A stretch of DNA of 64,000 nucleotides. Origin: Vulcanimicrobiota bacterium. Its GTDB lineage: Bacteria; Vulcanimicrobiota; Vulcanimicrobiia; Vulcanimicrobiales; Vulcanimicrobiaceae. A program made the translations under genes and the position numbers. The DNA lies in assembly GCA_963833095.1 (NCBI GenBank), contig CAWHWQ010000005.1:96001-160000 (forward strand), read 5' to 3'. Of the stretch, positions 15,975 to 39,453 are shown in pieces; the stretch's first letter is position 1; each line of letters begins with the position of its first letter. The notes below the pieces were generated by a model. The model ran no database searches. It was not told where the DNA came from and was given only the letters and a program-made list of their open reading frames with translations.

Positions 15975-16447
15975 AAGTCAGTGTCACCGTCAACGGAACC
16001 GCCTACGAGCGCGACGTCGAGCCGCGCATGCTGCTGGCCTACTTCCTGCGCGAATCGCTCGGGCTCACCGGAACGCACGTCGGCTGCGATTCCTCGCACT
16101 GCGGATGCTGCGTGGTCGTACTCGACGGCGACCGCGCCGTGAAATCGTGCAACATGTTTGCGGTGCAAGCCGATGGCCACGCGATCACCACGGTTGAGGG
16201 GCTCGAACAAGGCGGGAAGCTCCACCCGCTCCAGCAAGCCTTTTGGGACCAGCACGGATTGCAGTGCGGCTATTGCACGCCCGGCATGCTCATGACGTGT
16301 TCCGTTCTGCTCAAGCACAATCCAAAGCCAAGCGAAGCGGAGATCCGCGAGGGCATTTCAGGGAATCTGTGCCGTTGCACAGGGTATCAGAATATTGTCA
16401 AGGCCGTGCAGCAAGCTGCAGCGGCAGAAGAAATGGTGCCGTCATGA
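15971..16447 (+). CDS. coxS: Aerobic CO dehydrogenase small (2Fe-2S) subunit
   Basis: [12 protein letters not shown]...KSC and [10 protein letters not shown]...GNLCRCTGY. Confidence 0.95.
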
Positions 16448-18801
16448 CCACGACCGAAAAGCTACCCGACCGCCACTCGATGGGTCAATCGATGAAGCGC
16501 AAGGAAGACCCGCGCTTCATTCGGGGCAAGGGTCACTACCTCGATGACGTCGTTCTTCCGCACATGCTCTATCTTGCGCTGGTGCACAGTCCGTATCCGC
16601 ATGCGCGCATCACCAAGATCGACAAGACCGCCGCCTTGGCTTCGCCCGGCGTCAAAGCCGTGATTACCGGTGAAGATTTGGTCGCCGCCAAACTTGGCTG
16701 GCTGCCGACCTTCCACGGTTTCGACAATCAGATGGTGCTCGCGATCGGCAAAGCGCTCTATCAATATCAAGAGGTCGCCGGCGTGATCGCCACCTCGCGC
16801 GAGGCCGCCGCCGATGGAGCGGAGTTGGTCGACGTCACCTACGAACCGCTCGATCCGGTCGTCGACCCCTATCAATCCAAGCTCGACAAGATCATCTTAC
16901 GCGACGATCGCGAGGCCAAGACCAATCACATCTATCATTGGGAAGTCGGCGAACGCGAGAAGACCGATGCGGCCATCGCAAAGTCCGACGTCACAATCAA
17001 AGAACGGATTCTCTCCCCGCGCTGTCATCCCGCGCCGCTCGAACCGTGCGGCTGCGTCTCCGATATGAACGGCGCGACGGGACGCTTAACGATCTACATG
17101 ACGTCGCAAGCGCCGCATGTCCATCGTACCGCGTTCTCGCTGGTCACCGGCATCCCGGAAGATAAGATTCACGTGATCTCGCCTGATGTCGGCGGCGGCT
17201 TCGGCAACAAGGTGCCGGTCTATCCCGGCTACGTCGTCGCAACCGTTGCGTCGGTCATTTTGGGCGTGCCGGTCAAATGGGTCGAAACGCGCACCGAAAA
17301 TCTCACCACGACCGGCTTCGCGCGCGATTATCACATGGACGTCGAGCTCGGCGCGACCAAAGACGGTAAGGTCACGGCGCTCAAGGTCTCGACAACAGCC
17401 GACCACGGTGCCTTCGATGCCGCAGCCGACCCGCGCAAGTATCCCGCCGGCATGTTCGGCATCGTTACCGGCTCGTATGATTTTCCCACCGCGTTTGCCG
17501 AAGTCGACGCGTATTTCACCAACAAAGCACCGGGCGGGATCGCGTATCGCTGCTCGTTCCGCGTGACCGAGGCAGCATTCGCGATCGAGCGCGCGATGGA
17601 CATCCTCGCGCACAAGCTCGGCGTCGATCCGGTGCAGCTACGCATGCAGAACTTCATCAAGAAGGAGCAGTTCCCGTACCCCTCACCGTTGGGCTTCACC
17701 TACGACAGCGGCGACTACGCCGCGACCACCAAAAAAGCGCTCGACCTTATTGGGTACGACGCGCTGCGCAAAGAACAAGTTGAAAAGCGCAAGCGCGGCG
17801 AGTTGATGGGCATCGGCGTCTCGACGTTCACCGAAATCGTCGGCGCGGGACCCGGCAAACACTTCGACATTCTCGGGATCAAGATGTTCGATAGCGCCGA
17901 GATTCGCATCCATCCGACCGGCTCGGGCATCGTGCGCGCGGGGACGAAAGGTCAAGGCCAAGGACACGAGACGACCTGGGCGCAGATCGTGGCCGAAGAA
18001 CTCGGCCTCGATCCGCAAGAGTTGATGGTCGAAGAGGGCGACACCGACACCGCGCCCTACGGCCTAGGCACGTATGCCAGCCGCAGCACGCCGGTTGCGG
18101 GCGGCGCGCTCGCGCTGGCGTCGCGCAAGATTCGCGAGAAGGCGCGCAAGATCGCCGCGCACATGCTGGAAGCCTCCGAAGACGACGTTGAATGGAAGGA
18201 CTACAAGTTCTCGCTCAAGGGCGTGCCCGGCAAGAGTGTGACGATGAAGGAAGTCGCGTTCGCCGCGTACACCAATCCGGCGCCCGACACCGAACCCGGC
18301 CTCGAAGCAACCTACTACTACGACCCGCCGAACCTCACGTTCCCCAACGGCACCTACATCGCCGTGGTCGACGTCGACGCCGGCACCGGTGAGACCAAGG
18401 TTCGGCGATTCCTTGCCGTCGACGATTGCGGCGTGGTGATCAACCCGATGATCGTCGAAGGACAGATCCACGGCGGGCTCACCGAGGGCTTCGCCATGGC
18501 CTTCATGCAAGAGATCAAATTCGATGAAGGCGGGAATCATCTCAATACCAATTTCACCGACTATCTGGTGCCGACCGCGCTGGAAACGCCGCACTGGGAG
18601 ACCGGCAGCACGGTAACACCGAGCCCCCATCACCCGATCGGCGCCAAGGGCGTCGGCGAAAGCCCCAACGTCGGCTCGCCGCAGGCCTTCGTCAACGCCG
18701 TGATCGACGCGCTCTCGCCGATGGGCATCACGCACATCGATATGCCGCTCACGCGCGAAAAGGTTTGGAGTGCGATTCAAGGAGCGCAAAAGAAGCCATG
18801 A
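16444..18801 (+). CDS. coxL: Aerobic CO dehydrogenase large (Mo-Cu) subunit, form I
   Basis: Start MTTTEKL at 16444 (785 aa); [20 protein letters not shown], active-site AYRCSFR (17542-17562), [28 protein letters not shown] gene order. Confidence 0.95.
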
Positions 18802-19256
18802 ACTTAGAGTGGACCGGGCAAGAACGGATCCCGGCGAGCAAGGCGACCGTCTGGGCCTTCATCAACGATCCGGGCAAAGTTGCTTCGTGTCTGCCCGATC
18901 TGATTTCGTCGAACGTGAAAGATGCGCACAGCGTCGATGCAACGGTGAAGGTCGCGGTGGGCCCGGTGCGCGGCTCGTTCAAGTTCGCGATCACACTCCA
19001 GCCCGGCGCTAATGGAAATCACATGGACCTCAAGATCAGCGGTGGCGGCTTCGGCAGCGTCGTCGATCTGCTCGCGGGCGCAGATCTTACCGAGAACGCT
19101 GACGGCACCACGACGCTCGACTGGAAAGGTAACGCCTCGGTCAGCGGAACGGTCGCAACGATCGGGGGGCGCGTGCTCGACGCACAAGCGCATCGCGTCA
19201 TCAGCACAACTTTCGAAAACGTCAAGAACCACCTCAGCGGAGCACCCGCGGGATAA
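18798..19256 (+). CDS. coxG: CoxG (SRPBCC fold), no C-terminal membrane anchor
   Basis: VWAFINDP.KVASCLP, KVAVGPVRGSF, G.VATIGGRVLD; directly follows coxL; 152 aa. Confidence 0.85.
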   Translation: MNLEWTGQERIPASKATVWAFINDPGKVASCLPDLISSNVKDAHSVDATVKVAVGPVRGSFKFAITLQPGANGNHMDLKISGGGFGSVVDLLAGADLTENADGTTTLDWKGNASVSGTVATIGGRVLDAQAHRVISTTFENVKNHLSGAPAG

Positions 19257-19260
19257 CGTC

Positions 19261-20079
19261 ATGACCTTGCCACAGGAACCCTACGCCGTTGCTACCGTCG
19301 TCGTTCGGCGCTCTCCGGTCAGCGCGCATCTCGGCGATCGGGCGATCATCAATGCCGACGGACGCATGGACGGGTTTGTCGGCGGTTCATGTTCGCGCGA
19401 TATCGTGCGCCGCCAGGGTCTGGATGCAATCCGCACCGGCCGTGCCCGTCTCGTCCAGATTCGGCCCGAACCCGGCGACGACGCCGACGCGAATGCCGAG
19501 ACGGTGATCGTGCCGATGGGCTGTGCTTCCGAAGGAGCGGTCGACGTCTACGTCGAGCCGCATCTTCCGCCGCGCCCGTTGCTGATCGTCGGTCACACGC
19601 CGGTTGCGCAACAACTCGCGCGCCTTGGAACCGTGCTCGACGGCTTTCGCGTGCAGCGCGTGGTCGAAAGCGATGAGCTTGGCGATCTGCCCGCCAACGA
19701 ATCGTCGGACGCGATTGCGATTGAGTCGCTTGGCGGATATCTCGCGGCGCTGGGCGCGCAGCGCTCGCGTCTGGTAGCGGTCGTCGCTTCGCAAGGCCAT
19801 TACGACGAACGCGCGCTCGCCGCGCTGCTCTCTGGTGAAGCGCAGGCTTTCGTTGGATTGCTGGCCAGTCGCAAGCGCGCAGCCTCGGTCTTCGGCGCGC
19901 TCGAGCAAGAGGGCCTTGCGCGTGAAACGCTGGCGACCGTGCATAATCCCGTCGGACTCGATATCGGCGCGCGCACGCCGAGCGAAGTCTCCGTTTCCAT
20001 CCTCGCCGAGATCATCGCCGCATGCGTTCCGACCGCGGCGATCGATCGCGACGAAGGCCATCCTTGCTGTCACACGTGA
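19261..20079 (+). CDS. coxF: XdhC/CoxF-family CODH maturation protein
   Basis: ATVV...P.SA..GDRAI...GFVGGSC, MGCASEG.VDVYVEP, ASQGHYDE, VGLLASRKR, PVGLDIGARTP.EVSVSILAEII. Confidence 0.82.
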   Translation: MTLPQEPYAVATVVVRRSPVSAHLGDRAIINADGRMDGFVGGSCSRDIVRRQGLDAIRTGRARLVQIRPEPGDDADANAETVIVPMGCASEGAVDVYVEPHLPPRPLLIVGHTPVAQQLARLGTVLDGFRVQRVVESDELGDLPANESSDAIAIESLGGYLAALGAQRSRLVAVVASQGHYDERALAALLSGEAQAFVGLLASRKRAASVFGALEQEGLARETLATVHNPVGLDIGARTPSEVSVSILAEIIAACVPTAAIDRDEGHPCCHT

Positions 20080-21014
20080 ACGCCGACCGGTTACAGGAGG
20101 CTTTCGCCGCGCGCGGTTACATCGCCGACGACGACTTCGCGACGACCTTCGAGTTGATGCTCGCCCTTGGCAAACCACTGTTGATCGAAGGGCCGGCCGG
20201 CATCGGCAAGACCGAGAGCGCCAAAGTACTCGCCGAAGTTCTGGGAACGCGACTAATCCGGCTGCAGTGTTACGAGGGACTCGATGCGGCCAGCGCCCTC
20301 TACGAGTGGAACTACCCAAAACAACTCTTGCACCTCCGCGTGACCGAAGGACAGCATGATTCCGTGCAATCGCGCGAGGCGGAGATCTTCGGCGAAGCGT
20401 TCCTCTTGCGCCGACCGTTGCTCGAGGCGATCGTGCAAGAGCGCGCGCCGGTGTTGTTGATTGACGAGATCGATCGCGCCGATGAGGCCTTTGAGGCCTT
20501 TCTGCTCGAGGTTCTCGGCGAGTTTCAGGTGACGATTCCCGAAATCGGCACGATTCGCGCCAAAGAGCGTCCGGCCGTAATCGTGACGTCGAACCGTTCG
20601 CGCGACCTCTCCGACGCGCTGCGGCGGCGCTGTCTCTACCTCTGCATCGACTACCCGCCATACGAACGCGAGGTCGCAATTCTGCACGCGCGCTTGCCCG
20701 AGATAAACACGCGGCTCGCTGTCCAAATCGCGCGTTTCATGGAGTGGATGCGCGACCAGCCCTTTCAAAAGGTTCCAGGGACCGCCGAAAGCCTCGACTG
20801 GGCGCTTGCACTCGTGCGCCTGCATCGCGATGCGCTCGATGAACGAACGCTCGAAGCGACGTTGGGGTGCATCTTGAAACTGCAAGAAGATTGGGAGTTG
20901 CTCCGTTCGATGCACGCGCGTTACGAGCACTTGCTCACGCCGGATCCAAAGGCGCCGGCTGCGACGTCGCCGCCCGACCCCGACTACGGACTGGGCAGCG
21001 TCCGAGCGCATTAG
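20076..21014 (+). CDS. coxD: MoxR-family AAA+ ATPase CoxD
   Basis: GTG at 20076; EGPAGIGKTE, RLQCYEGLD...ALYEWNY.KQLL, LLIDEIDRAD, DALRRRC. Confidence 0.9.
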   Translation: MNADRLQEAFAARGYIADDDFATTFELMLALGKPLLIEGPAGIGKTESAKVLAEVLGTRLIRLQCYEGLDAASALYEWNYPKQLLHLRVTEGQHDSVQSREAEIFGEAFLLRRPLLEAIVQERAPVLLIDEIDRADEAFEAFLLEVLGEFQVTIPEIGTIRAKERPAVIVTSNRSRDLSDALRRRCLYLCIDYPPYEREVAILHARLPEINTRLAVQIARFMEWMRDQPFQKVPGTAESLDWALALVRLHRDALDERTLEATLGCILKLQEDWELLRSMHARYEHLLTPDPKAPAATSPPDPDYGLGSVRAH

Positions 21015-21025
21015 GGTTCCCTGAC

Positions 21026-22093
21026 ATGTCTGATCTCGCGAGTGCCACGCTCGAATTTTGCGAAATGCTCCGGCGCGAACACGACTTCGCCGTCGGCCGC
21101 GCGGAACTGCACGACGCGCTGCGCGCGACCGAGGCCATCGGCCTGCGCGAGCGTGGACGGTTGCGCGCCTCGCTGCGCGCCGTCTGTTGCTCGCGCCCCG
21201 AGGAGATCGCGACCTTCGATCGCGCGTTCGACGCCTTCTTCTCCAGTGGCCCCGAAGGTATACCGCAACCAAAACACGCGCGACGTTCACGCCCCGACGG
21301 CGGCGAAGAACCGCCACCGGAGCGCCAATCCACCTTCGCGCTCGAGGAAGAGAGCCTCGCGCAGCGCTGGCAATACCTGCAGGCGCGCTACAGTCCGGTC
21401 GAAGGCGCATCGCCTCCGCCGCCGATTCCGCTCGACGGTTATGACGATGCCGACGCGCTGGTGCAACGCCTGATCTCACGCATTCGCTTGGGCCGCTCAC
21501 GTCGCGTACGGCCGCAGCCGCATGGCCGGTACCTCGACCTTCGCCGTACCGTGCGCGCGAGTTTACAGACCGGCGGAGAAATCGTCGCGCTGCGCCGGCG
21601 CGGGTATCCGCTTCGCAATCCGCGTTTCGTCATGCTCATCGACGCAAGCCGCTCGATGAGCGAGCACACGCCGGCGGCGCTCCAGGTCGCCCAAGCGCTT
21701 CTGCGGCGCACACGACGCGCGAGCGCGTTCGTCTTTAGCACGGCGCTGCGCGAGATCACGCGCGACTTGCGGCGCAACCAACCCGTTACCAATACGGGCG
21801 AGGCCTGGGGCGGCGGCACCCGCATCGGGGCGAGCTTAAATACTTTTGTGCGCAACTTTGGGTCACGGCTCGACGATCATACGTACGTGATTCTGGTGAG
21901 CGATGGACTCGACGTCGGCGACATCCCGCAGCTCGACCATGCGATGCAAGAGATCGCGCGCCGAAGCGCCGCCATCGCGTGGGTCAACCCGCATGCCGCC
22001 GAGCCGGGCTTTACTCCGGCCACGCGCGGCATGCTGACCGCGCTGCCCTACCTAACGTCACTGACGGCGTGGGGCGGGCTTGCCGATGCGTGA
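21026..22093 (+). CDS. coxE: VWA-domain protein CoxE
   Basis: LDLRRTVRAS, MIDAS DASRSM, FVFST.L..IT, WGGGTRIGASL, LVSDGLD, WVNP. Confidence 0.88.
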   Translation: MSDLASATLEFCEMLRREHDFAVGRAELHDALRATEAIGLRERGRLRASLRAVCCSRPEEIATFDRAFDAFFSSGPEGIPQPKHARRSRPDGGEEPPPERQSTFALEEESLAQRWQYLQARYSPVEGASPPPPIPLDGYDDADALVQRLISRIRLGRSRRVRPQPHGRYLDLRRTVRASLQTGGEIVALRRRGYPLRNPRFVMLIDASRSMSEHTPAALQVAQALLRRTRRASAFVFSTALREITRDLRRNQPVTNTGEAWGGGTRIGASLNTFVRNFGSRLDDHTYVILVSDGLDVGDIPQLDHAMQEIARRSAAIAWVNPHAAEPGFTPATRGMLTALPYLTSLTAWGGLADA

Positions 22094-22982
22094 GGTCTTT
22101 GCAACCGCCGCCGCATGGCTCGACGAAGGCACGCCTTTTGCGCTCGCTACACTGTCCGAATTGCATGCCGCCAAAACCGCGCCGATCGGCACGACGATTG
22201 CCGTGAACGGCGACGGACGCATCGTGGGAAACATCGGCGCCGGCTGTTATGAGAGCGAGATCATCGAAACCGCGCAACAAACGTTAGCTGACGGCGTCAC
22301 GCGTTCGCTGGATGTCAATCTCGACAATGATGACGAACTCGCCGGTGGAACCGCCTGCGGTGCGGTGATGCGTCTCGTGATCTGGCGACCGCAAGCGGCC
22401 TTCCTCGATGACGCGCGCGCCATTGCCGGCGGCGAACGCTCGGTTACGCTGCGAATCGGCGGTTTCGAGCACATCGTTCCTGCGAAAGAGACCTTGATTC
22501 TGATTGGGGCCACGTCGCTCGCCGCCGATTTGGCGGCCGTTGCCCGGCGCATGGACTTCTGCGTCATCGTGGTCGATCCGCGCCCGGCCTTCGCAACGCC
22601 GCAACGGGTCCCGGATGCGCACGTCATCGTACGCGAATGGCCCGACGACTATCTCCCGCGCGTGCTCTCGTCGCACACGGCGATTGTCGTGCTCTCGCAC
22701 GACCCGAAGTTCGATCTTCCGGCGCTGCGCTGCGCCCTGCGCTCGAACGCCTCATATATCGGATTGTTGGGAAGCCGTCGCGCGCAAACCGCACGGCGCG
22801 CGGCGCTGCGCGCCGAGGGCTTCGACGAAGCGGCGCTCGAGCGCGTCCACGGTCCCGTCGGCCTTGATATCGGCGGCGCCACGACCGCCGAAACGGCGAT
22901 TTCGATTCTCGCGGAGATCGTAGCTGTGCGCAGCGGCCGTCGCGGAACGCCGTTGCTCTCCGCAAGCGGCGCGATACATTAG
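22086..22982 (+). CDS. XdhC/CoxI-family Mo-cofactor insertion protein (second copy)
   Basis: FALATL, GNIGAGCYE, ACGAVM, DPRPAFA, LSHDPKFD.PAL, YIGLLGSRR, GPVGLDIGG.T.AETAISILAEI. Confidence 0.85.
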   Translation: MREVFATAAAWLDEGTPFALATLSELHAAKTAPIGTTIAVNGDGRIVGNIGAGCYESEIIETAQQTLADGVTRSLDVNLDNDDELAGGTACGAVMRLVIWRPQAAFLDDARAIAGGERSVTLRIGGFEHIVPAKETLILIGATSLAADLAAVARRMDFCVIVVDPRPAFATPQRVPDAHVIVREWPDDYLPRVLSSHTAIVVLSHDPKFDLPALRCALRSNASYIGLLGSRRAQTARRAALRAEGFDEAALERVHGPVGLDIGGATTAETAISILAEIVAVRSGRRGTPLLSASGAIH

Positions 22983-24129: not shown

Positions 24130-24587
24130 GCGTCGCGCGAGTGGCCGCGCCCGCCGAATTTCTCGAGCTGCACCGGCTTCTCACGGTGTACGAAATCGAT
24201 CTCCCCGAAGCGCTTCGGCATGGCGCCGTGCCCGAGGTTTCGGAGCTCGCGGCGCTCTACGGCGCGCCGAACGCTGCGTTTATCGCGCGCCTCGATGAAG
24301 CCGGCGTCGGCTGCGTGGTGTGCACGTCGCAGGACAGCGCGACGGCCGTGCTCGCCCGCCTCTACGTCGAACCGCACGCACGGAAGGCCGGCACCGGCCG
24401 AGCGCTCGTCAATGCAGTGATCGATTTCGCGCGCGGGGACGGCTTCGAACGTGTCGTGCTCGATACTCACAGCGAACTGCTTGCGCCCGCCTATCGGCTT
24501 TACAACTCGCTCGGGTTTACTGAATATCAGCCCGCGTGTGGCGCCGAAGACGCGTTGTGCTCGACATTTATGGAGTTGCGGCTCTAG
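24066..24587 (+). CDS. GNAT-family N-acetyltransferase
   Basis: GVGCV, LARLYVEPHARKAGTGRALV (motif A), VVLDT, AYRLYNSLGF. Start uncertain: GTG 24066 has a GGAGG RBS but overlaps osmC; alternative GTG 24141. Confidence 0.8.
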   Translation: MSDQQRAARGTDQRFGNASVLSVARVAAPAEFLELHRLLTVYEIDLPEALRHGAVPEVSELAALYGAPNAAFIARLDEAGVGCVVCTSQDSATAVLARLYVEPHARKAGTGRALVNAVIDFARGDGFERVVLDTHSELLAPAYRLYNSLGFTEYQPACGAEDALCSTFMELRL

Positions 24588-25051
24588 CTCGAGGGTCGAG
24601 CCTTGAACGCGGCGCGGGATTCGATGTCACGCTTGATATCGAGCAGAAACTCTCGGGCGGTCGCCTGTGCGATCGCAAATCCAATCAGCTCGTCGAAAAC
24701 TTGACCTGCAGCGCCGAGCGGGGGCGTATAGTGCCCGCGCAACTCTATGAAGCTTTTCGCCGGATCATCCTCGCCCCAGGCGAGCAACGTACCCTCGAAG
24801 CGCGGGAAGATGACCGTACCTTCGGGCTCCCACGCGATACGAACGAGATTGTTGAGATTGCCCTCATCGCGGCCCTCACGCGCTTCTATGCGAACCTCGC
24901 GATCCAGCGAAAGCGCGCCGTCCATCGAAACACGAAGGCGCATCCGCGTCAACCCGTTTGCGTCCTCCCGGGCCGCGAAGAATGCGCGCAGACCGGCCTC
25001 GGTCTGTTCTACCGGGGATTCGAGAGCAGCCCGCTCGCGAAGTTCCTTCAT
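24584..25051 (-). CDS. Uncharacterised SRPBCC/START-like protein, paralog 1
   Basis: Start MKELRE at 25051; W.P...FP.F.G.L...L.G.YTPPLGAAG..FD...G..IA..TA motif shared with 35051-35530 and 39034-39453. Confidence 0.75.
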   Translation of the reverse strand: MKELRERAALESPVEQTEAGLRAFFAAREDANGLTRMRLRVSMDGALSLDREVRIEAREGRDEGNLNNLVRIAWEPEGTVIFPRFEGTLLAWGEDDPAKSFIELRGHYTPPLGAAGQVFDELIGFAIAQATAREFLLDIKRDIESRAAFKARPSS

Positions 25052-25068
25052 CCCGTGACCGTACCAGA

Positions 25069-25130: not shown

Positions 25131-27542
25131 ATGGTGGACGAAAGCTTTATCCAACTCGACGCCTACTGGCGGGCAGCAAACTACATCAGCGCCGGACAGA
25201 TCTACTTGCTCGACCGCAACCCGCTGCTGCGCCGATCGCTGACGCCCGCCGACATCAAGCCGCGCCTGCTCGGCCACTGGGGAACGACACCAGGTCTGAA
25301 TTTCGTCTACGCGCATCTCAATCGGGCGATAATGAGGCGCGATCTCGACGTCGTGTTCATGGCCGGACCCGGTCACGGCGGCCCGGCGCTGCTCGCCAAC
25401 GCCTACCTCGAAGGGACCTACAGCGAGCTCTATCCTAACGTGCCGCAGAACGCGGGCGGGCTCGGTCGACTCTTCAAACAGTTTTCGTTCCCCGGCGGCG
25501 TTCCCAGCCACGCCTCGCCCACGACGCCCGGCTCCATTCACGAAGGTGGCGAGCTGGGCTATGTGCTTTCGCACGCCTTCGGAGCCGTCTTCGACAACCC
25601 GGATCTGCTCGTGTGCGCGGTCGTCGGCGACGGCGAAGCCGAGACCGGTCCGCTTGCGACCGCGTGGCATTCGAACAAGTTTTTAAATCCCGCGCGTGAC
25701 GGCGCGGTGCTGCCGGTGCTGCACCTCAACGGTTATAAGATTTCCGGTCCCACAGTGCTGGCGCGCATCCCCGACGACGAATTGATCGCGCTCTTCCGGG
25801 GCTATGGCTACGACCCGGTAATCGTTGAGGGCGACCAACCCACGATGATGCACCCGTTGATGGCGGCAGTCCTCGATCGCGCGCTCGATCGCATTCGTTC
25901 GATTCAGCGCGTAGCGCGTATCCACGGATTCCGCGAGCGCGACACCTGGCCGATGATCATCCTGCGCACACCCAAAGGCTGGACCGGACCAAAGGTCGTC
26001 GACGGCGTCCCCATCGAGGGCACGTTCCGGGCGCACCAAGTCCCATTGCTCGAAGTGCGCGAGAAGCCCGAACACTTGGCCATGCTCGAAGCCTGGATGC
26101 GGAGCTATCGTCCCGAAAAGCTCTTCGATCATGAGGGTTGCCCGGTTGCGTATGTACGCGAGGCCGCGCCGCGCGGCACTCGGCGCATGAGCGCCAACCC
26201 ACACGCCAACGGCGGCGCATTGCTACGCGAGTTGCAGATGCCGGCCTTCGCCGACTACGCGGTGAACGTCCCGGCTCCGGGCGCCGTGCGCGCCGAAGCG
26301 ACACGCGCGCTTGGGCCGATGCTGCGCGACATCATGCGCGAGAATAGCGATCGCTTCCGCATAATGAGTCCAGACGAAACGACTTCGAATCGACTCGAAG
26401 CACTCTTCGAAGTGACCAATCGCTGTTCGGTCGCGCAGATCGTTCCCGGCGACGATCACGTCGCGCCCGATGGCCGCGTGATGGAAGTCTTGAGCGAACA
26501 CCAGTGTGAAGGCTGGCTCGAGGGCTATCTTCTCACCGGGCGACACGGCATCTTCCCCTGCTACGAAGCCTTCATTCATATCGTCGACTCAATGGTCAAT
26601 CAGCATGCGAAGTGGATCAAGATGGCGCGCGAGGTCCCCTGGCGCCGCCCAATCGCCTCGCTGAATTATCTGCTCACCTCACACGTGTGGCGCCAGGATC
26701 ATAACGGATTCAGCCATCAAGATCCGGGCTTCATCGATCATATCATCAACAAGAAGGCCGACACGGTGCGCGTGTATTTGCCCCCCGACGCCAACACGCT
26801 GCTCTCGGTCGCCGATCATTGTCTACGCAGCCGCGACTACATCAACGTTATCGTCTCCGGCAAACAGCCCGAATGGCAATGGCTCGACATCGAAGCAGCG
26901 GTGCGTCACTGCATGCAAGGCGCGAGCATCTGGGACTGGGCATCCGGCGACGACGGCTTGGAGCCCGACGTCGTCATGGCCTGCGCCGGGGACGTGCCGA
27001 CGCTGGAAACGCTAGCAGCGGTCGCCTTCCTACGCACCCACGTTCCCGAACTGCGCGTGCGCGTGGTCAATGTTGTTGATCTGATGGCGCTCGAGTCGCG
27101 CGATCAGCATCCGCACGGTTTGAGTGATGAGGTCTTCAGCTCACTTTTCAGCGAGAATTCGCCCGTGATCTTCGCTTTTCACGGGTACCCGGCGTTGATT
27201 CACCGCTTGACGTACAAGCGGCCCAATCATGACAATTTCCACGTCCATGGCTATCGTGAGGAAGGATCGACTACGACGCCGTTCGACATGACGGTACGCA
27301 ATCAGCTCGACCGCTTCCATCTCGCTGCCGACGCGATCGATCGAGCTCCACGTCTAGGCGATCGCGGTGCCCACGCACAACAGTTCATCCGCAATAAGCT
27401 CAACGAGCACCTTGCGTATATCGAGCGCTACGGCGAAGACATGCCCGAGATTCGCGACTGGTCCTGGCCCAACGCGCGTTCGATGGCGGCGAGCAGTTCA
27501 CGTGGCTCCGCCGGCTTGGGCAGCGCGCTCGCTACGCCGTAG
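25131..27542 (+). CDS. xfp: Xylulose-5-phosphate/fructose-6-phosphate phosphoketolase
   Basis: [36 protein letters not shown] motif [48 protein letters not shown]. Possible alternative GTG start 25134. Confidence 0.96.
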
Positions 27543-27829
27543 ATCTCCATGAAGTCTCGCATCGCGGCATCGATCGTGCTTGCGGTATACAGCGCGACGC
27601 GAAGCGGCCGTGTTCGCTCGTCGGCACGCAGCGCGCGAAGAAACTGCGGTCCGCTCATCCCCGGCAGCGAGAGATCGGTGATAACGAGGTCGGGCTGACG
27701 TTCGAGAGCGAGCTCGAGGCCTTGCTCGCCGCTCGAAGCTTCGAGTGCGGTGTGACCGCCATGCGCGAGCAGCGTGGTGACCAGCAGGCGCGCGTTGGGA
27801 TCGTCGTCGACGATCAGCACGCATGCCAT
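27428..27829 (-). CDS. Single-domain response regulator (CheY-like)
   Basis: [30 protein letters not shown]; 3' end overlaps xfp by 115 bp. Confidence 0.88.
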
Positions 27830-28203
27830 CAGTGGTTCTTCCGATCCAGAAACGCTTGGACGTGCGCAACGAACGTGCGCGGTTCGATCGGTTTTGCGAT
27901 ATAGCCGTCGAAACCGGCTTGCGCGATACGCTCGCGGTCGCCCGACATGGCCAGTGCCGTCACCGCGACCAGTGGCGTCGAGGACACATGCGATTCACTC
28001 TTGAAGCGGCGCGCAAATTCGTAGCCGTCGATGCCGGGCATCAAGATGTCGGTCAGAACGATAGCGAATTCACCGGAAAGCGCTGCTTGGAGCCCGATCA
28101 AAGCGTCCCCATGTCCCTCCGCGTCGTAACGGAAGGCTCGCAGCAGATAGAGCATCAGATCGAGGTTGACGGCGTTGTCGTCGACGACGAGGACGCGCGA
28201 CAC
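27829..28203 (-). CDS. Single-domain response regulator (DivK-like)
   Basis: VLVVDDN..N, VLTDILMPGIDG, VAVTALAMSGDRERI..AGFDGYIAKPI. Confidence 0.92.
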   Translation of the reverse strand: MSRVLVVDDNAVNLDLMLYLLRAFRYDAEGHGDALIGLQAALSGEFAIVLTDILMPGIDGYEFARRFKSESHVSSTPLVAVTALAMSGDRERIAQAGFDGYIAKPIEPRTFVAHVQAFLDRKNH

Positions 28204-28206
28204 GTG

Positions 28207-29361
28207 CTACCGCGCCCGCGGAAGCGTGAACGTAAACGTACTTCCCTTCCCCGGCTGGCTGGTGACGGTCAGCTCCCCGCCGAGCAAGTCCGCGAGATTG
28301 CGGCACAGATATAAGCCAAGACCCGTGCCCTCGAAGCGGCGCGTGCTCGAACGATCGAGCTGTTCGAAGGCCTTGAAGAGACGCTCCTGATCTTCGGGCT
28401 TGATTCCGATGCCGGTATCGCTCACGCAAAACGCGACGGCAGGCTGTTCGTTGTGGTTTGTCGCCGAGACGTCGATATGTACCGATCCGGCTTCTGTGTA
28501 CTTGAGCGCATTGTTGGTCAGGTTCAAGAGAATCTGCGCGAGTGCGCGCCGGTCCGTCGCGATGGGCTTCCCGTCGTCAACGACATGGGTGGTGAATTCG
28601 ATCCGCTTCTCGGCCGCAAGTGCGGCCATCGCGGATGACACCTCTTCAACGACCTCTTTGGCCGAGATCAACTCAACGGTAAGCTCGGTCTTCCCTGACT
28701 CGATCTTTGCAAGGTCGAGTATGTCGTTGATCAACGAGAGCAGATGGCGCGCGCTCGACTGCACGATTTCGAGTTGCCGTTCTTGCTCGGGCGAAAGGGG
28801 TCCGGGCAATTGCATCAAGAGCGTGCCGGTAAAGCCGATGATCGCATTGAGCGGCGTACGTAGCTCGTGACTCATAGACGCTAGAAATGAATCCTTCGCC
28901 CGATTCGCGTCTTCGAGTGCGGTGTTGAGCTCACGTAGCTGGCGTTCGAGCGTTTTGCGTTCCGTCGAGTCGCGAATCGAAGCCGACACGAAGGTCCCTT
29001 CGCGGGTCGAGATCGGGCTCAAGCTGATTTCGACGGGAAACTCGGTGCCATTCTTGCGTAGGCCGTTCAACTCAAGGCCGACGCCCATCGGGCGCACGTG
29101 CGGATCGCCGTAATAGCCCTTGCGCTCGCCCACGTGTCTACTATGGTAACGCGCCGGAATCAGCATCTCGATCGGATGCCCAAGCAGTTCTTCGCGATAG
29201 TATCCAAAGAGCCGTTCGGTCTGCGCGTTCACCAGCCGAATCTTGCCATCGGCATCGACGAGGATTGTCGCGTCGGGCGCGTACTCGAGCAGCGGAAAGC
29301 GGCTTCCCGCTAAATCCGCAAGCGAGAACGTTACTTCACCGGCCGTTTGCGAAGGATCCAT
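28207..29361 (-). CDS. Cytoplasmic PAS-domain sensor histidine kinase
   Basis: Start MDPSQ at 29361; PAS (APDA...VN...ERLFGY...RK.G.EFPVEISLSP...RD.TERK); H box SHELRTPLN, N box NLTNNALKYT, DTGIGI, GTGLGL; no TM segment. Confidence 0.93.
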   Translation of the reverse strand: MDPSQTAGEVTFSLADLAGSRFPLLEYAPDATILVDADGKIRLVNAQTERLFGYYREELLGHPIEMLIPARYHSRHVGERKGYYGDPHVRPMGVGLELNGLRKNGTEFPVEISLSPISTREGTFVSASIRDSTERKTLERQLRELNTALEDANRAKDSFLASMSHELRTPLNAIIGFTGTLLMQLPGPLSPEQERQLEIVQSSARHLLSLINDILDLAKIESGKTELTVELISAKEVVEEVSSAMAALAAEKRIEFTTHVVDDGKPIATDRRALAQILLNLTNNALKYTEAGSVHIDVSATNHNEQPAVAFCVSDTGIGIKPEDQERLFKAFEQLDRSSTRRFEGTGLGLYLCRNLADLLGGELTVTSQPGKGSTFTFTLPRAR

Positions 29362-29415
29362 AGCTCTTTTCAACCGCGGTAGGGCTTCCCAGGCGTGGTC
29401 GCGGAGTAGCCCATC

Positions 29416-29595
29416 GTGGGAACAAACAACCTGCGGCACGATCTGGGCAATCTCCTCGGTGTCGCGCTCGCCAACGTCGAGGGCATGATCGACGGGATCG
29501 TTCCGACTACTAAGGAGCGGCTCGAGGTCGTCGCCGACTCGCTGCGACGCTCCGCTGAACTGGTAGCGAGACTGCGCAACGACGGAAAGGATTAG
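29416..29595 (+). CDS. Stand-alone HisKA/DHp-like microprotein (59 aa, absent from the ORF track)
   Basis: GGAG at 29403-29406, GTG 29416, TAG 29593-29595; translates to MGTNNLRHDLGNLLGVALANVEGMIDGIVPTTKERLEVVADSLRRSAELVARLRNDGKD; fills the gap between the kinase and ackA. Confidence 0.72.
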   Translation: MGTNNLRHDLGNLLGVALANVEGMIDGIVPTTKERLEVVADSLRRSAELVARLRNDGKD

Positions 29596-30614
29596 CCGGC
29601 GCGCAACAGGCGCAGCGTGTGGAACGCGATCATCAGGCTCTCGTCGGTGGGAATCACCAAGGTCGCGACGTCGCATAGATAGTCGATTGCCGCGATAACG
29701 CGGTCGCGAATCGGCGCTGCGTGCTCGCCGATACCGCCGGTAAACACAAGCGTATCGAGGCCGCCAAGTACCGCTATCATCGCACCCAGCTGCTTGGTCA
29801 GTTGATAAACAAAGAGCTCGACGGCATCGCGCGCGGCAGCATTCGTGTTTGCCGCTTCGAGGAGCGTGCGCATGTCGGCGCTCGAGCCCGAGACGCCGAG
29901 CAGCCCGCTGCGATGATAGAGCAGTTCGGTCAACTGCTCGACGTTGTATCGATCCTTGCCGAGCAGCCGCAGCACAACTCCTGGATCCAAATCGCCGGGA
30001 CGCGTGCCCATCATCAATCCACCAAGCGCGGTAAATCCCATCGTCGTATCGATCGGCTCGCCGTCACGTACCGCGCACAGGCTGGCGCCCGAGCCCAGAT
30101 GCGCGATAACCGTTCGCCCCGAGCCCGTAGGTAACTGGGAGACGATGTACTCGTATGAGAGTCCGTGAAAACCGTAGCGCTGCAGCAACGGGTCGAGATC
30201 GTTCGGCAACGGCAGACGATGGGCAATCGCCGGCGATCGCCGATGAAAAGCCGTGTCGAAGCAAAGCACGTTCGGCACGTGCGCCAACGCCAGTGTCACG
30301 GCATACACCAAATCAAGTTCGGCACGCAAATGCAGCGGTTCGATGCTTACGAACGCTTCGATATCGCGCATCACCGCGGTGTCGGCTCGAACGGGCGATT
30401 CGTAGCGCGCTCCACCGAACACAATGCGGTGCCCGACCGCGTCGATGTCGTCGCAATCAACCTGCTTGAGGACCTGCGTCACCAGCGCTTCGGCATCGCC
30501 GCGGGCCGGCAGCGTCCCCGAATGCTCGAGTTGGATCTCGCTCGTTGTTCCGCGCGCGCGATACACGGCAAATTTCAACGATGATGAGCCGCCGTTGAGC
30601 GCGAGCACCTTCAC
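29592..30614 (-). CDS. ackA: Acetate kinase (short, 340 aa)
   Basis: GTG at 30614: KVLALNGGSSSLKF, AVGHRIV.GG, PLH, FDTAFH, RYGFHGLSY, AHLGSGAS, TTMGFT.L.GLMMGTRPGD, FTGGIGEH, IPTDE. Confidence 0.93.
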   Translation of the reverse strand: MKVLALNGGSSSLKFAVYRARGTTSEIQLEHSGTLPARGDAEALVTQVLKQVDCDDIDAVGHRIVFGGARYESPVRADTAVMRDIEAFVSIEPLHLRAELDLVYAVTLALAHVPNVLCFDTAFHRRSPAIAHRLPLPNDLDPLLQRYGFHGLSYEYIVSQLPTGSGRTVIAHLGSGASLCAVRDGEPIDTTMGFTALGGLMMGTRPGDLDPGVVLRLLGKDRYNVEQLTELLYHRSGLLGVSGSSADMRTLLEAANTNAAARDAVELFVYQLTKQLGAMIAVLGGLDTLVFTGGIGEHAAPIRDRVIAAIDYLCDVATLVIPTDESLMIAFHTLRLLRAG

Positions 30615-30622
30615 ATCTGGCT

Positions 30623-35002: not shown

Positions 35003-35050
35003 TCCGTAGTTCTTCCCTTCAGCTTCTTATCCACACGGCATGATGGCCTC

Positions 35051-35530
35051 ATGGCACGACTACATCAGCGCCGCTACCTCAAATGTCCGTACAATCGCGC
35101 GCGCGATTTGCTCGCGGAGTCGATTGCGGATGCGCTCCAAAGGGGCGACGGGCGCCTCTTACACTTAAACTTCGCGTTTCCCGCCGTGATGAGCGTGGAG
35201 CTGGGCAAGGATGTCATCGTCAGCGTCAAGCCGGTCGCGGATCCCATGCACTTCGACGAACCGTGGAATCTGCACTGGGCACCCGTTAGCGGTTTATACC
35301 CGGTTTTCGACGGGATTCTCACCATTCGGGCTGACGAATCCTACGCAAGCGCGATACTCGAACTGGAAGGTACGTACGAGCCGCCGCTCGGGCTTGCCGG
35401 GATGATCTTCGATGCGGTACTCGGTCAGCGCATCGCGCACGAAACGGCACGCGAACTCTTACGCAAGCTCGCCGCAACGATCGAAACGCGATACCGCGTG
35501 ACCGAAGACGAAAAAACGCCGGCGCCCTAG
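35051..35530 (+). CDS. Uncharacterised SRPBCC/START-like protein, paralog 2
   Basis: Start MARLHQ at 35051; HWAP...YPVFDGILT...LEGTYEPPLGLAG.IFDAVLGQRIA..TARELL. Confidence 0.78.
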   Translation: MARLHQRRYLKCPYNRARDLLAESIADALQRGDGRLLHLNFAFPAVMSVELGKDVIVSVKPVADPMHFDEPWNLHWAPVSGLYPVFDGILTIRADESYASAILELEGTYEPPLGLAGMIFDAVLGQRIAHETARELLRKLAATIETRYRVTEDEKTPAP

Positions 35531-36213
35531 GCTTTGCGCATCTTGTAGCCGACGCCGTACACCGTCAGCACGAAGGTCGGTTCGTGCACGTTCGGCTCGA
35601 TTTTTCGGCGCAGGTTGTTGATGTGACGATCGAGGGTCCGCTCGAAAATCGAACCGTCATCACTGAGTTTATCGAGCAGTTGCGAACGCGTTAGCGCGAC
35701 CCCGGCGTTAAGCGCCAACACTTCGAGAAGACGAAATTCCGATGGTGTCAATTGGGTGGGCCGGTTGCCGATGCGCACCTCGTGCGCTTCACCGTCGATC
35801 TCTAAGTCCCCGATGCGAATAATCGAATGCGCACCGCGCGTTTCGGCAGTCGTGCGCGTGCGACGCAAGACCGCCCGAACACGTGCGACCACTTCGCGCG
35901 GCGAAAACGGCTTGGTGACGTAGTCATCGGCACCGATCTCGAGCCCGACAATCCGATCCACCTCGTCGGCGCGCGCCGTGACCACGATTGCCGGGATCCC
36001 GCGGTCGCGCACATCGCGAAGGATGTCGAGTCCGCTACCGTCCGGGAGGGCGACGTCGAGCAACATTAGATCCGGGCGGTTCGCCGCGAGCGCTGCACCT
36101 GCCTCAGCCACCGTGGTGCAGACCGTCGTGGCGAACCCTTCAGCCCGAAGATATTCCGCCAGAACCTCGCCGATCTGCGCCTCATCCTCAACGATCAAGA
36201 TCGTGTCTGCCAC
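35527..36213 (-). CDS. OmpR/PhoB-family response regulator (no adjacent kinase)
   Basis: GTG 36213 with GGAGG RBS; ILIVEDE, DLMLLDVALP, GLEIGADDYVTKPFSPRE, LTPSEF, RTLDRHINNLRRKIE, TVYGVGYK. Confidence 0.93.
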   Translation of the reverse strand: MADTILIVEDEAQIGEVLAEYLRAEGFATTVCTTVAEAGAALAANRPDLMLLDVALPDGSGLDILRDVRDRGIPAIVVTARADEVDRIVGLEIGADDYVTKPFSPREVVARVRAVLRRTRTTAETRGAHSIIRIGDLEIDGEAHEVRIGNRPTQLTPSEFRLLEVLALNAGVALTRSQLLDKLSDDGSIFERTLDRHINNLRRKIEPNVHEPTFVLTVYGVGYKMRKA

Positions 36214-36288: not shown

Positions 36289-36414
36289 ATGAGCACAGAA
36301 GGCGACCGCGGGGACACGCCGCTCCCCGGAACGTTGACGTTCGTCCTTGGCGTGGGCGTAGCTTTTCTCATCGGATGGTTCGCGTTATTCGTCCTTCTTG
36401 CGGAGCGGTGGTAA
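36289..36414 (+). CDS. cbaD: ba3-type oxidase subunit IIa (41 aa, absent from the ORF track)
   Basis: MSTEGDRGDTPLPGTLTFVLGVGVAFLIGWFALFVLLAERW: single TM with a GTL...W...R pattern; ends 1 nt before cbaB. Confidence 0.75.
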   Translation: MSTEGDRGDTPLPGTLTFVLGVGVAFLIGWFALFVLLAERW

Positions 36415-36415
36415 A

Positions 36416-36883
36416 GTGCACGTTCACCGCTACGAACGCTGGTGGATGCTCTTCGGAATAATTATGCTCGTTTTGTTCATGGCGACGATTTTCGTAGCGG
36501 CATTCGCGGACAACATCAATCCACCCGACGGATCCCAAACGATCGATCCGGCGAAAGTCAACACGACGCCGCCGTTCGACCACCCCGGGTTGCGCAACCT
36601 CGGTAACGGGCGCTATGAGGCCTATTACGTCGCGTCGGTCTTCATGTTCACGCCCGCGAAGCTGCAGATTCCCGTCGGCGCAAACGTGACGTTCTACGTC
36701 ACCAGCTCTGACGTGGTTCATGGTTTCGAAATCGCGCAGACCGATGTCAACGCGATGGCGATTCCCGGGTGGGTAAACAGCACGAGTCATACGTTCCGCA
36801 CGGCCGGAACCTATCTGCTGGTGTGCAACGAGTACTGCGGCATTGGGCACCAAAACATGTACGGCACGATCGAGGTTAAATGA
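36416..36883 (+). CDS. cbaB: ba3-type (family B) heme-copper oxidase subunit II
   Basis: MHVHRYER.W, single TM, CuA ligands DVVHGF...CNEYCGIGHQNM. Confidence 0.92.
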   Translation: MHVHRYERWWMLFGIIMLVLFMATIFVAAFADNINPPDGSQTIDPAKVNTTPPFDHPGLRNLGNGRYEAYYVASVFMFTPAKLQIPVGANVTFYVTSSDVVHGFEIAQTDVNAMAIPGWVNSTSHTFRTAGTYLLVCNEYCGIGHQNMYGTIEVK

Positions 36884-38517
36884 TGCGAGCAAGCGCGTCT
36901 TTGGAGGCCCAGAACCGCGTCGTTCTGGCCCACATTTACACCGCAACGATCGCGGTGTGCCTTGGCGCCGTCTTTGGCGTATTGCAAGGTTTTTCGCGTG
37001 CCGGCGCGATCGACGCGCCCGCGTGGTTCGACTATTACCGGATGTTGACCGCGCACGGCGTGCTGATGGCACTCGTCTTTACGACATTCTTTATCACGGG
37101 CTTCACGCTCTTTGCCACCTATCGGACGATTGCGCGCCCGGACCGCAGGCAAGCAGTTGGGTGGATCGGCTGGTGGATGATGCTGCTCGGCACCGCTACC
37201 GCCGCGATCACGATTTTGAGCGGCAATGCGACGGTGCTCTATACGTTTTATGCACCCCTCAAGGCAAGCCCCGCGTTTTATCTCGGCGCTACGCTGCTCG
37301 TGCTTGGGACGTGGGTCGTCGCCTTCGAGATATTCGAAAACGCCTATTACTATCGCCGGAATAACCCTGGGAAGCCGCTTCCCCTTCCGGTCTTCATGGC
37401 GTCCGCAACGTTCCTGATGTGGATCATCGCCACGCTGGGCGTCGTCGCCGAGATGGCGTTGCTCATTCCATGGTCGTTCGGCTGGACGCCCGGCGTCAAC
37501 GTCATGCTCACGCGCATGTTGTTCTGGTACTTCGGGCATCCGCTCGTGTACTTCTGGATCATGGGTGCATACATCATTTGGTATACGGTCATACCCACGC
37601 GATACGCTGGAAATATTTTCAGCGACGGGCTTGCGCGCCTCACGTTCCTGATGTTGTTGCTACTTTCTACGCCCGTCGGCATCCACCATGAGTTCACCGA
37701 GCCCGGCATCGCCTCGAATTGGAAGCTCTTGCACATGGTGATGACCTACGGCGTCGCGATCCCGTCGTTCCTCACCGCTTTTGCGATCTTCGCCTCGTTC
37801 GAATTGGCTGCGATCAAGCAGGGCAAACGCGGCTTCGTTGCGACCGTCCGTTCGCTTCCGTGGAATGACCCGTTCTTCTCGGCCGCCGGATACGGCATGC
37901 TGCTCTTTATCCTCGGCGGATTCGGCGGCATGGTGAACGCCTCGTACAGCATGGATACGTTGGTGCACAACACGATCTGGATCGTCGGCCACTTCCATGT
38001 CACCGTCGGCGGCCCCGTCGCGCTGACGTTCATTGGCGCGACCTACTGGCTGATCCCACGGCTCACAGGGCGTGAACTGTGGGGCCGCAGCATCGCGCTC
38101 TGGCAAACGCGCTTGTGGTTCATCGGCATGCTGGTGATGTCGCTTTCGATGCACTATGCCGGATTGCTCGGCGCGCCACGCCGAACTGCGTCCGTTGCCT
38201 ACGCGGGCGCGTCGGTCGCTCAGTCCTGGGAGCCCGCGATGTTGCTCGCCGCGGCAGGCGGGGCGATTCTTTTCATCAGCATCTGCTTCTTTGCCGCCGT
38301 CGCGATCGGCACGTTGTTCCAAAACGAGAAGACGCACGATATGAGCGCCGATTTCGCCGTCGCGGCGCCTGGGAGCGAGCGCGCTCCGGCGATGTTCGAA
38401 CACCTCTTCCGTTGGGGCCTCGTTGCGCTTATCCTAGCCATTCTCGCCTACAGCGGTCCGTTCATCGAACTCTTTCATAGCAACGCGTTCCTCGCACCCG
38501 GCATGCGCACGTGGTAA
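36880..38517 (+). CDS. cbaA: ba3-type (family B) heme-copper oxidase subunit I
   Basis: YY..LTAHGVL, VLYTFYAPL, FWYFGHPLVYFW, GIHHEF, VHNT.WI.GHFH, LGAPRRT. Confidence 0.93.
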   Translation: MMRASASLEAQNRVVLAHIYTATIAVCLGAVFGVLQGFSRAGAIDAPAWFDYYRMLTAHGVLMALVFTTFFITGFTLFATYRTIARPDRRQAVGWIGWWMMLLGTATAAITILSGNATVLYTFYAPLKASPAFYLGATLLVLGTWVVAFEIFENAYYYRRNNPGKPLPLPVFMASATFLMWIIATLGVVAEMALLIPWSFGWTPGVNVMLTRMLFWYFGHPLVYFWIMGAYIIWYTVIPTRYAGNIFSDGLARLTFLMLLLLSTPVGIHHEFTEPGIASNWKLLHMVMTYGVAIPSFLTAFAIFASFELAAIKQGKRGFVATVRSLPWNDPFFSAAGYGMLLFILGGFGGMVNASYSMDTLVHNTIWIVGHFHVTVGGPVALTFIGATYWLIPRLTGRELWGRSIALWQTRLWFIGMLVMSLSMHYAGLLGAPRRTASVAYAGASVAQSWEPAMLLAAAGGAILFISICFFAAVAIGTLFQNEKTHDMSADFAVAAPGSERAPAMFEHLFRWGLVALILAILAYSGPFIELFHSNAFLAPGMRTW

Positions 38518-38536
38518 TCGCAAAAGGAGACACATC

Positions 38537-39028
38537 ATGTTCACTACCATTCTCGTCGCCGTCGACGAATCCGATGCGTCCGGCACGGCACTCGATCTCG
38601 CGCGTCGCCTCGCCAAAGAAGACACCGCGAACCTGCTCTTAGTCAACGTCGTCGACGTTTCCAAGTACCTCCTCGTCTGCGGCTACGAGACGCCTTACCC
38701 GGTCGACACGATCCAGGTGATGCGAGACGCCGGCGCCGATATGCTCGGTGCCGCAAAGGCGCAGTGCGAGGCCGACGGCGTATCTGCGGAAACCGTCGCA
38801 GCCGAAGGCGACACATGCGACGAGATCCTGCGCATCGCAGGCGACAACCGCGTTGGACTGATTTGCATGGGTACGCACGGGCGAAAAGGTCTTGCCCATC
38901 TCTTCGTCGGTAGCGTTGCCGAGGGCATCCTGCGCCGCGCGAACGTGCCGGTCATTGTGACGCGCCCGGCCCAAAAACACGCGCACGACATCGACCGCCG
39001 CACGACTGCAGCGGTCACGGCAGCATAA
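38537..39028 (+). CDS. Universal stress protein
   Basis: ILVAVDES..S..AL, ATP-binding G-2x-G-9x-GS motif MGTHGRKGLAHLFVGSVAE, PVIV; AGGAG RBS. Confidence 0.92.
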   Translation: MFTTILVAVDESDASGTALDLARRLAKEDTANLLLVNVVDVSKYLLVCGYETPYPVDTIQVMRDAGADMLGAAKAQCEADGVSAETVAAEGDTCDEILRIAGDNRVGLICMGTHGRKGLAHLFVGSVAEGILRRANVPVIVTRPAQKHAHDIDRRTTAAVTAA

Positions 39029-39033
39029 GCGAC

Positions 39034-39453
39034 GTGCACCCCGGCAACCGAATCATTCGGGTGGACGCGTTCGCTCGGTGTCCATTCTCCGATGCGATCG
39101 AGCGGGCAGAGGCCTTCCTTGCGCAAGCGGCGGAGCGCGGACGCATCCAGGAATTGATCGTCGAAAGCGAAGTCAACGCGCTCGTCGTCGAGGATTATAC
39201 CGATAGCGTACGGCGCCACGAGGCGCTGGAGTTTCACTGGCGTCCGCGTTCCTCGCTATTCCCCGACGGTCACGCTCTTCTAACCGTGCGCCCTCACGCG
39301 CCGCAAGGCGCGCAATTGCAGCTCAGCATCGCGTATACGCCGCCATTCGGCGGTGCCGGCCGGCTGTTCGACGCGTGCATCGGACGACACATCGCATGGA
39401 TTACAACCGGCCTGCTCCTGCGCCGTCTGCGACGCGAAGTCGAGCGGCTATAG
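39034..39453 (+). CDS. Uncharacterised SRPBCC/START-like protein, paralog 3
   Basis: CPFS N-terminus; HWRP...FP....LTVRP...YTPPFGGAGRLFD..IGRHIA..T..LL. Confidence 0.75.
   Translation: MHPGNRIIRVDAFARCPFSDAIERAEAFLAQAAERGRIQELIVESEVNALVVEDYTDSVRRHEALEFHWRPRSSLFPDGHALLTVRPHAPQGAQLQLSIAYTPPFGGAGRLFDACIGRHIAWITTGLLLRRLRREVERL

Follow-up and report, generated by a model that had tools for sequence, protein, structure and literature searches.

The window, i.e., the whole stretch of 64,000 nucleotides analysed here, contains a gene for a stand-alone DHp (HisKA-like) protein of 59 aa, which, as judged from sequence comparison, represents the reduced extreme of a kinase family of Vulcanimicrobiota and descends from the own kinase of an OmpR regulator. 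With a probability of roughly 0.55, the protein would act as a minimal dimeric phosphotransferase, in a relay leading from a PAS kinase via a receiver to the DHp His and on to OmpR. The following features of the window are relevant:

29416-29595, +: stand-alone DHp (HisKA-like) protein, 59 aa (from Pfam, homologs, dN/dS and predicted fold)
28207-29361, -: PAS-HisKA-HATPase kinase, cytoplasmic, putative phosphate source (start inferred from homologs)
27829-28203, -: REC1, receiver-only, candidate first acceptor (best match BarA receiver; Asp52 and Lys104 in 53/53 orthologs)
27428-27829, -: REC2, receiver-only, candidate donor to DHp (Asp52 and Lys105 in 54/54 orthologs)
35527-36213, -: OmpR/BaeR-type response regulator, putative final acceptor (ancestral cognate of the parent kinase of DHp)
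25131-27542, +: phosphoketolase, which makes acetyl phosphate; possible regulon member
29592-30620, -: acetate kinase (start approximate); possible regulon member
36398-39028, +: genes for subunits II and I of a heme-copper oxidase and for a Usp protein, divergent from ompR; may belong to a low-oxygen regulon
29380-29405, +: bipartite upstream element between the divergent genes; candidate promoter or regulator site

The DHp gene and its locus

The reading frame begins with GTG, ends with TAG and was recovered with the position and the peptide given in the original prediction. Its H-box reads H8-D-L-G-N12 (codon of His8 at 29437-29439), with an acidic residue at H+1 and Asn12 at H+4. HisKA was found as the sole Pfam match (PF00512, E=6e-4), as expected, though its 20.2 bits are below the gathering cut-off of 26.9; the same profile hits 32 of the 45 short members of the family, and the full-length relative P0108 is above the cut-off with 28.0 bits. 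AlphaFold2 predicts a hairpin of two helices (residues 3-25 and 33-56, pLDDT 94), for which the DHp domains of SrrB and HK853 rank first in Foldseek, with no match at E<=0.001. A profile search of the PDB returned AdeS alone, at E=1e-3, and NCBIfam holds no family for the protein.

Short homologs were searched among candidates of 53-64 aa, of which 24 out of 25 matched, the window's own protein being counted among them. His8 and Asn12 are invariant among the 24; intact short orthologs with the conserved His thus exist, as had been anticipated, and homologs are not confined to full-length kinases. The records of close homologs belong to Eremiobacterota/Vulcanimicrobiota, Ca. Aquilonibacter, Ca. 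Cybelea and others. Besides the window's genome (G000; 2.8 Mb, 81% complete), 12 of 17 genomes of the same genus carry a short DHp frame, each opposite the same PAS kinase. The gene had been described as uncalled, which is too strong because the exact protein is already present in a gene-call collection; its homologs are named 'hypothetical protein'.

The dN/dS ratio was computed over 45 codons in all six frames for six genera. In the sense frame it amounts to 0.20 (genus g1, 13 sequences), 0.13 (g33, 20 sequences), 0.27 (g31, six sequences) and, in three smaller genera, 0.22, 0.11 and 0.15, and lies below 1 throughout, as predicted. The sense frame has the lowest ratio of the six frames in 6/6 genera and contains zero stops; the antisense shadow frame is second lowest (0.21-0.47). 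GC contents by codon position (0.73/0.39/0.75) resemble those of neighbour genes. The ORF is a real gene under selection. An antisense shadow of the PAS kinase, whose frame is open through the ORF in G000 (28207-29676), was ruled out, since homologous kinases start at or below 29361 and the sense frame has the lowest dN/dS.

That the ORF is what is left of a lost, decaying kinase, or that frameshift-prone assemblies produced it, is largely refuted and highly improbable. Many frameshifts occur in G000, which is why we relied on its relatives, and some short representatives may be contig-end fragments. Against both possibilities stand the purifying dN/dS of 0.11-0.27 in six genera without stops, a length which is alike in several near-complete genomes, the gene's own start codon, its relocation away from ompR and the absence of any leftover of the ATPase when the 900 nt behind each of the 67 short copies described below were read in three frames. 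Sixty-four of these 67 copies end 46-65 residues after the His, just past helix 2. The frameshifts found in otherwise ordinary genes of G000 (e.g., a kinase at C1:416647-417837 and a secA-like gene on C5) are likely assembly errors.

The DHp gene is arranged head-to-head with the PAS kinase gene, which is followed by the two receiver-only genes; the divergent kinase operon with only output-less receivers was thus confirmed. At its other end it lies tail-to-tail with the acetate kinase gene, with a 4-nt overlap. According to gene coordinates, a kinase adjoins 9 of the 12 above-cut-off OmpR-type genes of G000, but none stands beside ompR 35527-36213, in accordance with the claim of a regulator without kinase. 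The GGAG taken for an RBS is present, but it is part of the longer upstream element and is not conserved as GGAG. This element (TAGG-N14-22-CGCGGA-like) occurs in 18 of 43 loci, in the genera g1, g33, g39, g42, g46 and g47, and a looser pattern has three matches in G000. In 8 of 13 same-genus genomes (L034-L041) the start codons of the DHp and PAS kinase genes overlap in one CATG palindrome, so that the upstream region of each gene is coding sequence of the other. A scan for sigma-70 promoters and terminators found nothing, and a search for RNA listed no holder.

The genes for phosphoketolase and acetate kinase (xfp and ack) adjoin the DHp locus in many relatives, whose neighbouring genes further encode heme-copper oxidase, Usp proteins and alcohol dehydrogenases. 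An unnamed family of ~150 aa is multicopy around the system, with three paralogs at 24584-25057 (-), 35048-35530 (+) and 39034-39453 (+). It has no Pfam match, its nearest named Atlas clusters are SRPBCC-like, and it is fused to DHp in P0026, P0027 and P0046. Upstream of the cluster, the region 16243-22982 encodes a large subunit resembling that of molybdenum CO-dehydrogenase, together with accessory XdhC, AAA and VWA proteins, and is kept in several relatives.

Ancestry within an OmpR-linked kinase family

A profile of the 45 short members was run on 301 genomes of the phylum, a tally which includes the unpublished G264, a genome used for no other result. It matched 157/301 genomes of the phylum and 130/206 of the own family, nearly always with one copy per genome; eight weak matches (E about 1e-6) were obtained in other families of the phylum. 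For closer reading, 117 loci from 115 genomes were chosen from the matches to cover the genera, hence not at random (e.g., 20 of the 30 g33 matches), giving 120 copies. Full-length relatives were taken from the genome searches, because the search for longer homologs scored only 8000 candidates, with four matches. After reading the ATP boxes, the 120 copies were divided into 38 full kinases (including G093, G285 and G023), 14 with a degenerate ATPase and 68 without ATPase, the latter consisting of 67 short copies and one fused to an unnamed domain. The N-terminal hairpin is clearly kept in 10 of the 67 short copies and partly kept in a few others. The series seen thereby leads from the full kinase via the degenerate ATPase and the N-terminal hairpin plus DHp to the DHp only.

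The position of ompR connects these forms. It is found directly upstream of 32 of the 38 full and all 14 degenerate kinases and adjoins 44 of the 68 ATPase-less copies, 23 times directly upstream and 21 times directly downstream. Within the genus g33 the DHp gene is directly upstream of ompR in 20/20 loci read, and the gene order is REC2-REC1-PAS kinase, divergent to DHp-ompR (REC1 is missing in one). Both the ancestral operon and the g33 arrangement support the proposed pairing with an OmpR regulator. A second ompR paralog lies within about 4 kb of the DHp-ompR pair in the g33 loci L137, L140, L143, L144, L147, L149, L152 and L156. The suggested BaeS-like ancestry was likewise substantiated, as the best NCBIfam match is BaeS_SmeS for a full-length relative and BaeR for the regulator.

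Closest to the full-length relatives in the PDB is the DHp-CA part of SrrB (E=7e-28). Compared with SrrB/BaeS-type kinases, which represent the ancestor type, the ancestor in this family would be sensorless and cytoplasmic, as the full-length kinases are, and would carry four near-invariant Cys in the ATPase domain, which the window protein has lost. These Cys are present in 37, 37, 35 and 36 of 37 full kinases (the frameshifted G023 being excluded) and in 7, 5, 6 and 4 of the 14 degenerate forms. Two of the four align with cysteines of SrrB. A redox-sensitive disulfide is described for the CA domain of SrrB (PMC8534201), and the two may correspond to the pair that forms it. The four-Cys sensorless kinases (e.g., P0108, L121, L126) are candidates for a built-in redox or metal sensor.

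For the history of the loss, a tree of OmpR and DHp with 109 rows was used, 11 copies without usable ompR being excluded. The ATPase-less state needs 15 changes on this tree and 16 on the tree of OmpR only, and a single clade of ATPase-less copies was rejected by the AU test (p-AU far below 0.05). Reading these gene trees, whose deep branches are weak, we suggest about ten or more ATPase losses. Two loci deserve separate mention. L121 (G038) contains three tandem ompR-kinase pairs, one full, one degenerate and one ATPase-less with the His replaced by Ala. In P0101, DHp is joined to a partial receiver and an OmpR winged helix, which could reflect a genuine fusion or a misassembly.

The partner PAS kinase and its receivers

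In the same locus (14-20 kb, some shorter), a PAS kinase related to that of the window accompanies 56/68 of the ATPase-less and 5/14 of the degenerate copies, and 0/38 of the full ones. Counted by genome, the partner is present in 65/66 ATPase-less, 9/12 degenerate and 5/35 full-kinase genomes and in 0/2 genomes holding both short and full copies (G038, G303), where the counts combine a genome search for 64 genomes with locus matches for the rest and for two frameshifted kinases, and the assignments of 35 genomes rest on locus-level matches. The uniform genome search alone found the partner in 15/18 ATPase-less versus 5/35 full-kinase genomes, and in 1/16 genomes without DHp, the contig ending inside that kinase. 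For the short DHp of G232 (94% complete, 370 contigs), no partner kinase was found. Eight phylogenetically independent pairs could be drawn from the OmpR+DHp tree, about 5.6 of them in the same direction and 0 in the opposite one (median p 0.031); the OmpR-only tree gave six pairs with 4.6 in the same direction and 0 opposite, which is not significant (median p 0.0625). The predicted link to the PAS kinase and receivers is supported by this comparison across genomes, in which ATPase loss tracks the presence of a heme-PAS-like kinase with output-less receivers, at p values of 0.03-0.06 from few independent pairs.

The partner kinases form two clades. In one, a simple PAS-HK precedes REC1 and REC2; the other consists of hybrid PAS(-PAS)-HK-REC kinases without Hpt, and in G163 the order is ompR, DHp, hybrid kinase. 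The catalytic core of the window's PAS kinase is BarA/TorS-like. FixL and DosP are the best named matches of the PAS domain, with the heme-ligand His aligned and kept in 73/76. Oxygen may be the signal of the PAS kinase and the regulon a low-oxygen one. A comparable arrangement is described for NmpRSTU of Myxococcus, where a heme-dependent kinase stands upstream of another component of kinase origin and of the regulator for an oxygen-utilisation regulon; in contrast to the present system, the REC-HisKA-CA kinase NmpS is intact, and NmpR belongs to the NtrC type (PMC11841059).

Both receivers keep their Asp and Lys in all orthologs. REC2 is the better candidate for the donor to DHp in the simple system, because it is fused to DHp in P0088 (seen on two contigs), lies beside DHp and away from the kinase in G183 and G231, is kept in G126 where REC1 was lost, and is missing from the locus of the full-kinase genome G052. 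The receiver of the hybrid clade is REC1-like. A metagenome scan with the REC2-DHp fusion yielded 80 receiver loci, none of them with this DHp. In L180 and L182, kinases of the type REC-HisKA-HATPase-REC, located downstream of REC1, have a REC2 homolog as their N-terminal receiver, which suggests that REC2 itself arose by truncation. Neither REC1 nor REC2 contains the FATGUY motif reported from several relay intermediates; according to the same source, ShkA lacks it as well (PMC9981736). As to Hpt domains, the single match of G000 lies inside a frame of 665 aa, and none occurs in the g33 genomes (0/6). Separate short Hpt frames are found in six g31 hybrid-kinase genomes and in G230, where they could serve the hybrid kinase instead of DHp.

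A candidate relay, its alternatives and related systems

In the relay that we prefer, phosphate would move from the heme-PAS-like kinase to an output-less receiver (REC2 and/or REC1), from there to His8 of DHp and finally to the OmpR regulator, while Asn12 may have kept a drain (phosphatase) function. HisKA DHp domains are homodimeric four-helix bundles, and DHp would accordingly dimerise. The relay is preferred on the grounds that the partner kinases are BarA-type and come with receivers of their own, that Asp and Lys are kept in these receivers although they lack an output, and that ompR has no other kinase beside it. Among the 68 ATPase-less copies the His and the acidic H+1 are kept in 67 each and the H+4 Asn in all 68, so that carrier and phosphatase chemistry are both possible; the sole His-less copy belongs to a genome with full paralogs in which the PAS partner was not found. 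H+1 changes from Glu to Asp with ATPase loss (27/68 vs 2/38), which is not significant in independent pairs (median p 0.25). As a precedent, PhyT and PhyK are described to pass on phosphate from a single-domain receiver with no need for ATP binding (PMC5898713, PMC5964349).

It speaks against the relay that the H+4 Asn, the only invariant column of the 45 short proteins, is at least as conserved as the His. The non-significant pair test on the OmpR-only tree, the separate Hpt frames in hybrid-kinase genomes, the missing FATGUY motif and the genomes G232, G038 and G303, in which no partner was found, likewise count against it. The main rival, which we regard as unlikely, holds that DHp is a phosphatase only, resetting via Asn12 an OmpR~P which would be phosphorylated directly by the PAS kinase or by acetyl phosphate. 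The complete conservation of this Asn fits such a role, the genes xfp and ack flank the locus in many relatives, the co-occurrence with the replacement kinase is equally expected, and DHp alone suffices for phosphatase activity in EnvZ and NtrB (PMC3510030). The latter source assigns the H+4 Asn to the phosphatase activity of HisKA proteins, but H+1 to the kinase activity, and His and H+1 have nevertheless been retained in 67/68 copies each. Furthermore, the partner kinases are BarA-type and own receivers, the simple ones examined being followed by output-less receivers with intact Asp, and a REC2-DHp fusion exists.

Retention of the acidic H+1 and the tight linkage to the PAS kinase would also suit a split kinase, in which the ATPase of another protein, in the simplest case the PAS kinase acting in trans or as heterodimer, phosphorylates His8 and DHp provides specificity for OmpR. 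A split three-protein system of this kind is Rv0600c/Rv0601c/TcrA of M. tuberculosis. This explanation is distinctly improbable, since it leaves the retention of the receivers unexplained and no orthologous free ATPase was found in G000 (81% complete) with the queries used, where the best matches are 28-39% to intact kinases and the two short ATPase-like frames checked are frameshifted ordinary kinases. A non-catalytic inhibitor or sink, with the hairpin sequestering OmpR or a receiver or poisoning the PAS kinase dimer, finds parallels in the small DHp-binding inhibitors Sda and KipI (PMC12189002) and in PhyT, which is reported also to sequester PhyR (PMC5898713). It is quite improbable as well, as His, H+1 and H+4 are conserved as in the active ancestors, and if DHp were purely an inhibitor, nothing in the locus would activate the orphan OmpR.

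For the relay, the nearest parallels are Spo0B (Bacillus KinA-Spo0F-Spo0B-Spo0A) and ChpT (Caulobacter CckA-ChpT-CtrA), described as kinase-derived DHp proteins with a His and without autokinase activity, which link an output-less receiver to a DNA-binding regulator (PMC6136694, PMC5898713, PMC3433190). The window protein shares with Spo0B, ChpT and PhyT the conserved His on a kinase-derived DHp without working ATP site, and kinase, output-less receiver and terminal regulator co-occur with it. It differs in being the hairpin alone, with 59 aa (the ChpT chain of 4fmt has 208 aa), in its BaeS/SrrB-like origin and in having intact ancestors in sister genera. Spo0B and ChpT keep a degenerate alpha/beta domain, whereas a C-terminal degenerate CA-like domain is absent here and occurs only in the 14 degenerate relatives. 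The SPOB_a and HPTransfase profiles do not match the protein at E<=1 and are absent among the 25 families listed for the 45 short members. Nor is there a match to Hpt (PF01627) for the protein or the 45 short members, and two helices do not make a single-chain four-helix bundle. The HATPase_c of a sensor histidine kinase is missing too, the stop following 52 codons after the His. Lacking the CA-like domain and the profile matches, the protein is no member of the Spo0B, ChpT or PhyT families, though by analogy it likely works like Spo0B, ChpT or PhyT/PhyK.

PhyT and PhyK (Pak-SdrG-PhyT-PhyR; MrrA-PhyK-PhyR) resemble the present case in history, each being the former cognate kinase at the regulator's locus, now a phosphotransferase fed by other kinases via a single-domain receiver; their CA domain is degenerate in one ortholog and intact in another, a stage which the 14 degenerate forms resemble (PMC5898713, PMC5964349). 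They differ in being membrane-bound and HWE/HisKA_2-type with the CA fold kept, whereas the family described here is cytoplasmic, of HisKA type and repeatedly reduced to DHp. Isolated DHp fragments of EnvZ and NtrB are phosphatase-competent as DHp alone (PMC3510030), but are engineered and not natural genes. Archaeal 'HisKA, no HATPase' proteins possess a His-bearing HisKA-like domain and are proposed to be phosphoacceptors or phosphatases, but carry PAS/GAF sensor domains and belong to another lineage (PMC5847659). In the literature covered, from which subscription journals were mostly absent, no description of a natural DHp-only protein, or of the present system, was found.

How new signalling architectures arise has been called unclear (PMC6136694). 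For the family as a whole we propose, tentatively and at somewhat less than even odds, that in Vulcanimicrobiota one two-component system became a four-step phosphorelay on about ten or more independent occasions. The original kinase, sensorless and bearing a four-Cys redox site in its ATPase domain, would have been displaced by a heme-PAS kinase of two separate clades, have lost first the ATPase and later the N-terminal hairpin, and survive as a phosphotransferase of 55-60 residues, with every intermediate in living genomes. Spo0B, ChpT and PhyT are thought to be degenerate kinases, whose intact ancestors and intermediates are mostly not at hand. Here, one single-copy family holds intact, degenerate, hairpin-plus-DHp and bare DHp states beside the same regulator, and the repeated ATPase losses track the arrival of a replacement kinase. 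While the type of protein has precedent in kind, the captured and repeated series from kinase to relay would be new. The finding also flags a class of genes of 55-65 aa that are below the Pfam cut-off and annotated as hypothetical, and DHp would define a minimal phosphotransfer part. If the relay is true, the family displays two-step signalling turning into a four-step relay, and as each of its states can be purified and profiled, the origin of phosphorelays would become directly testable.
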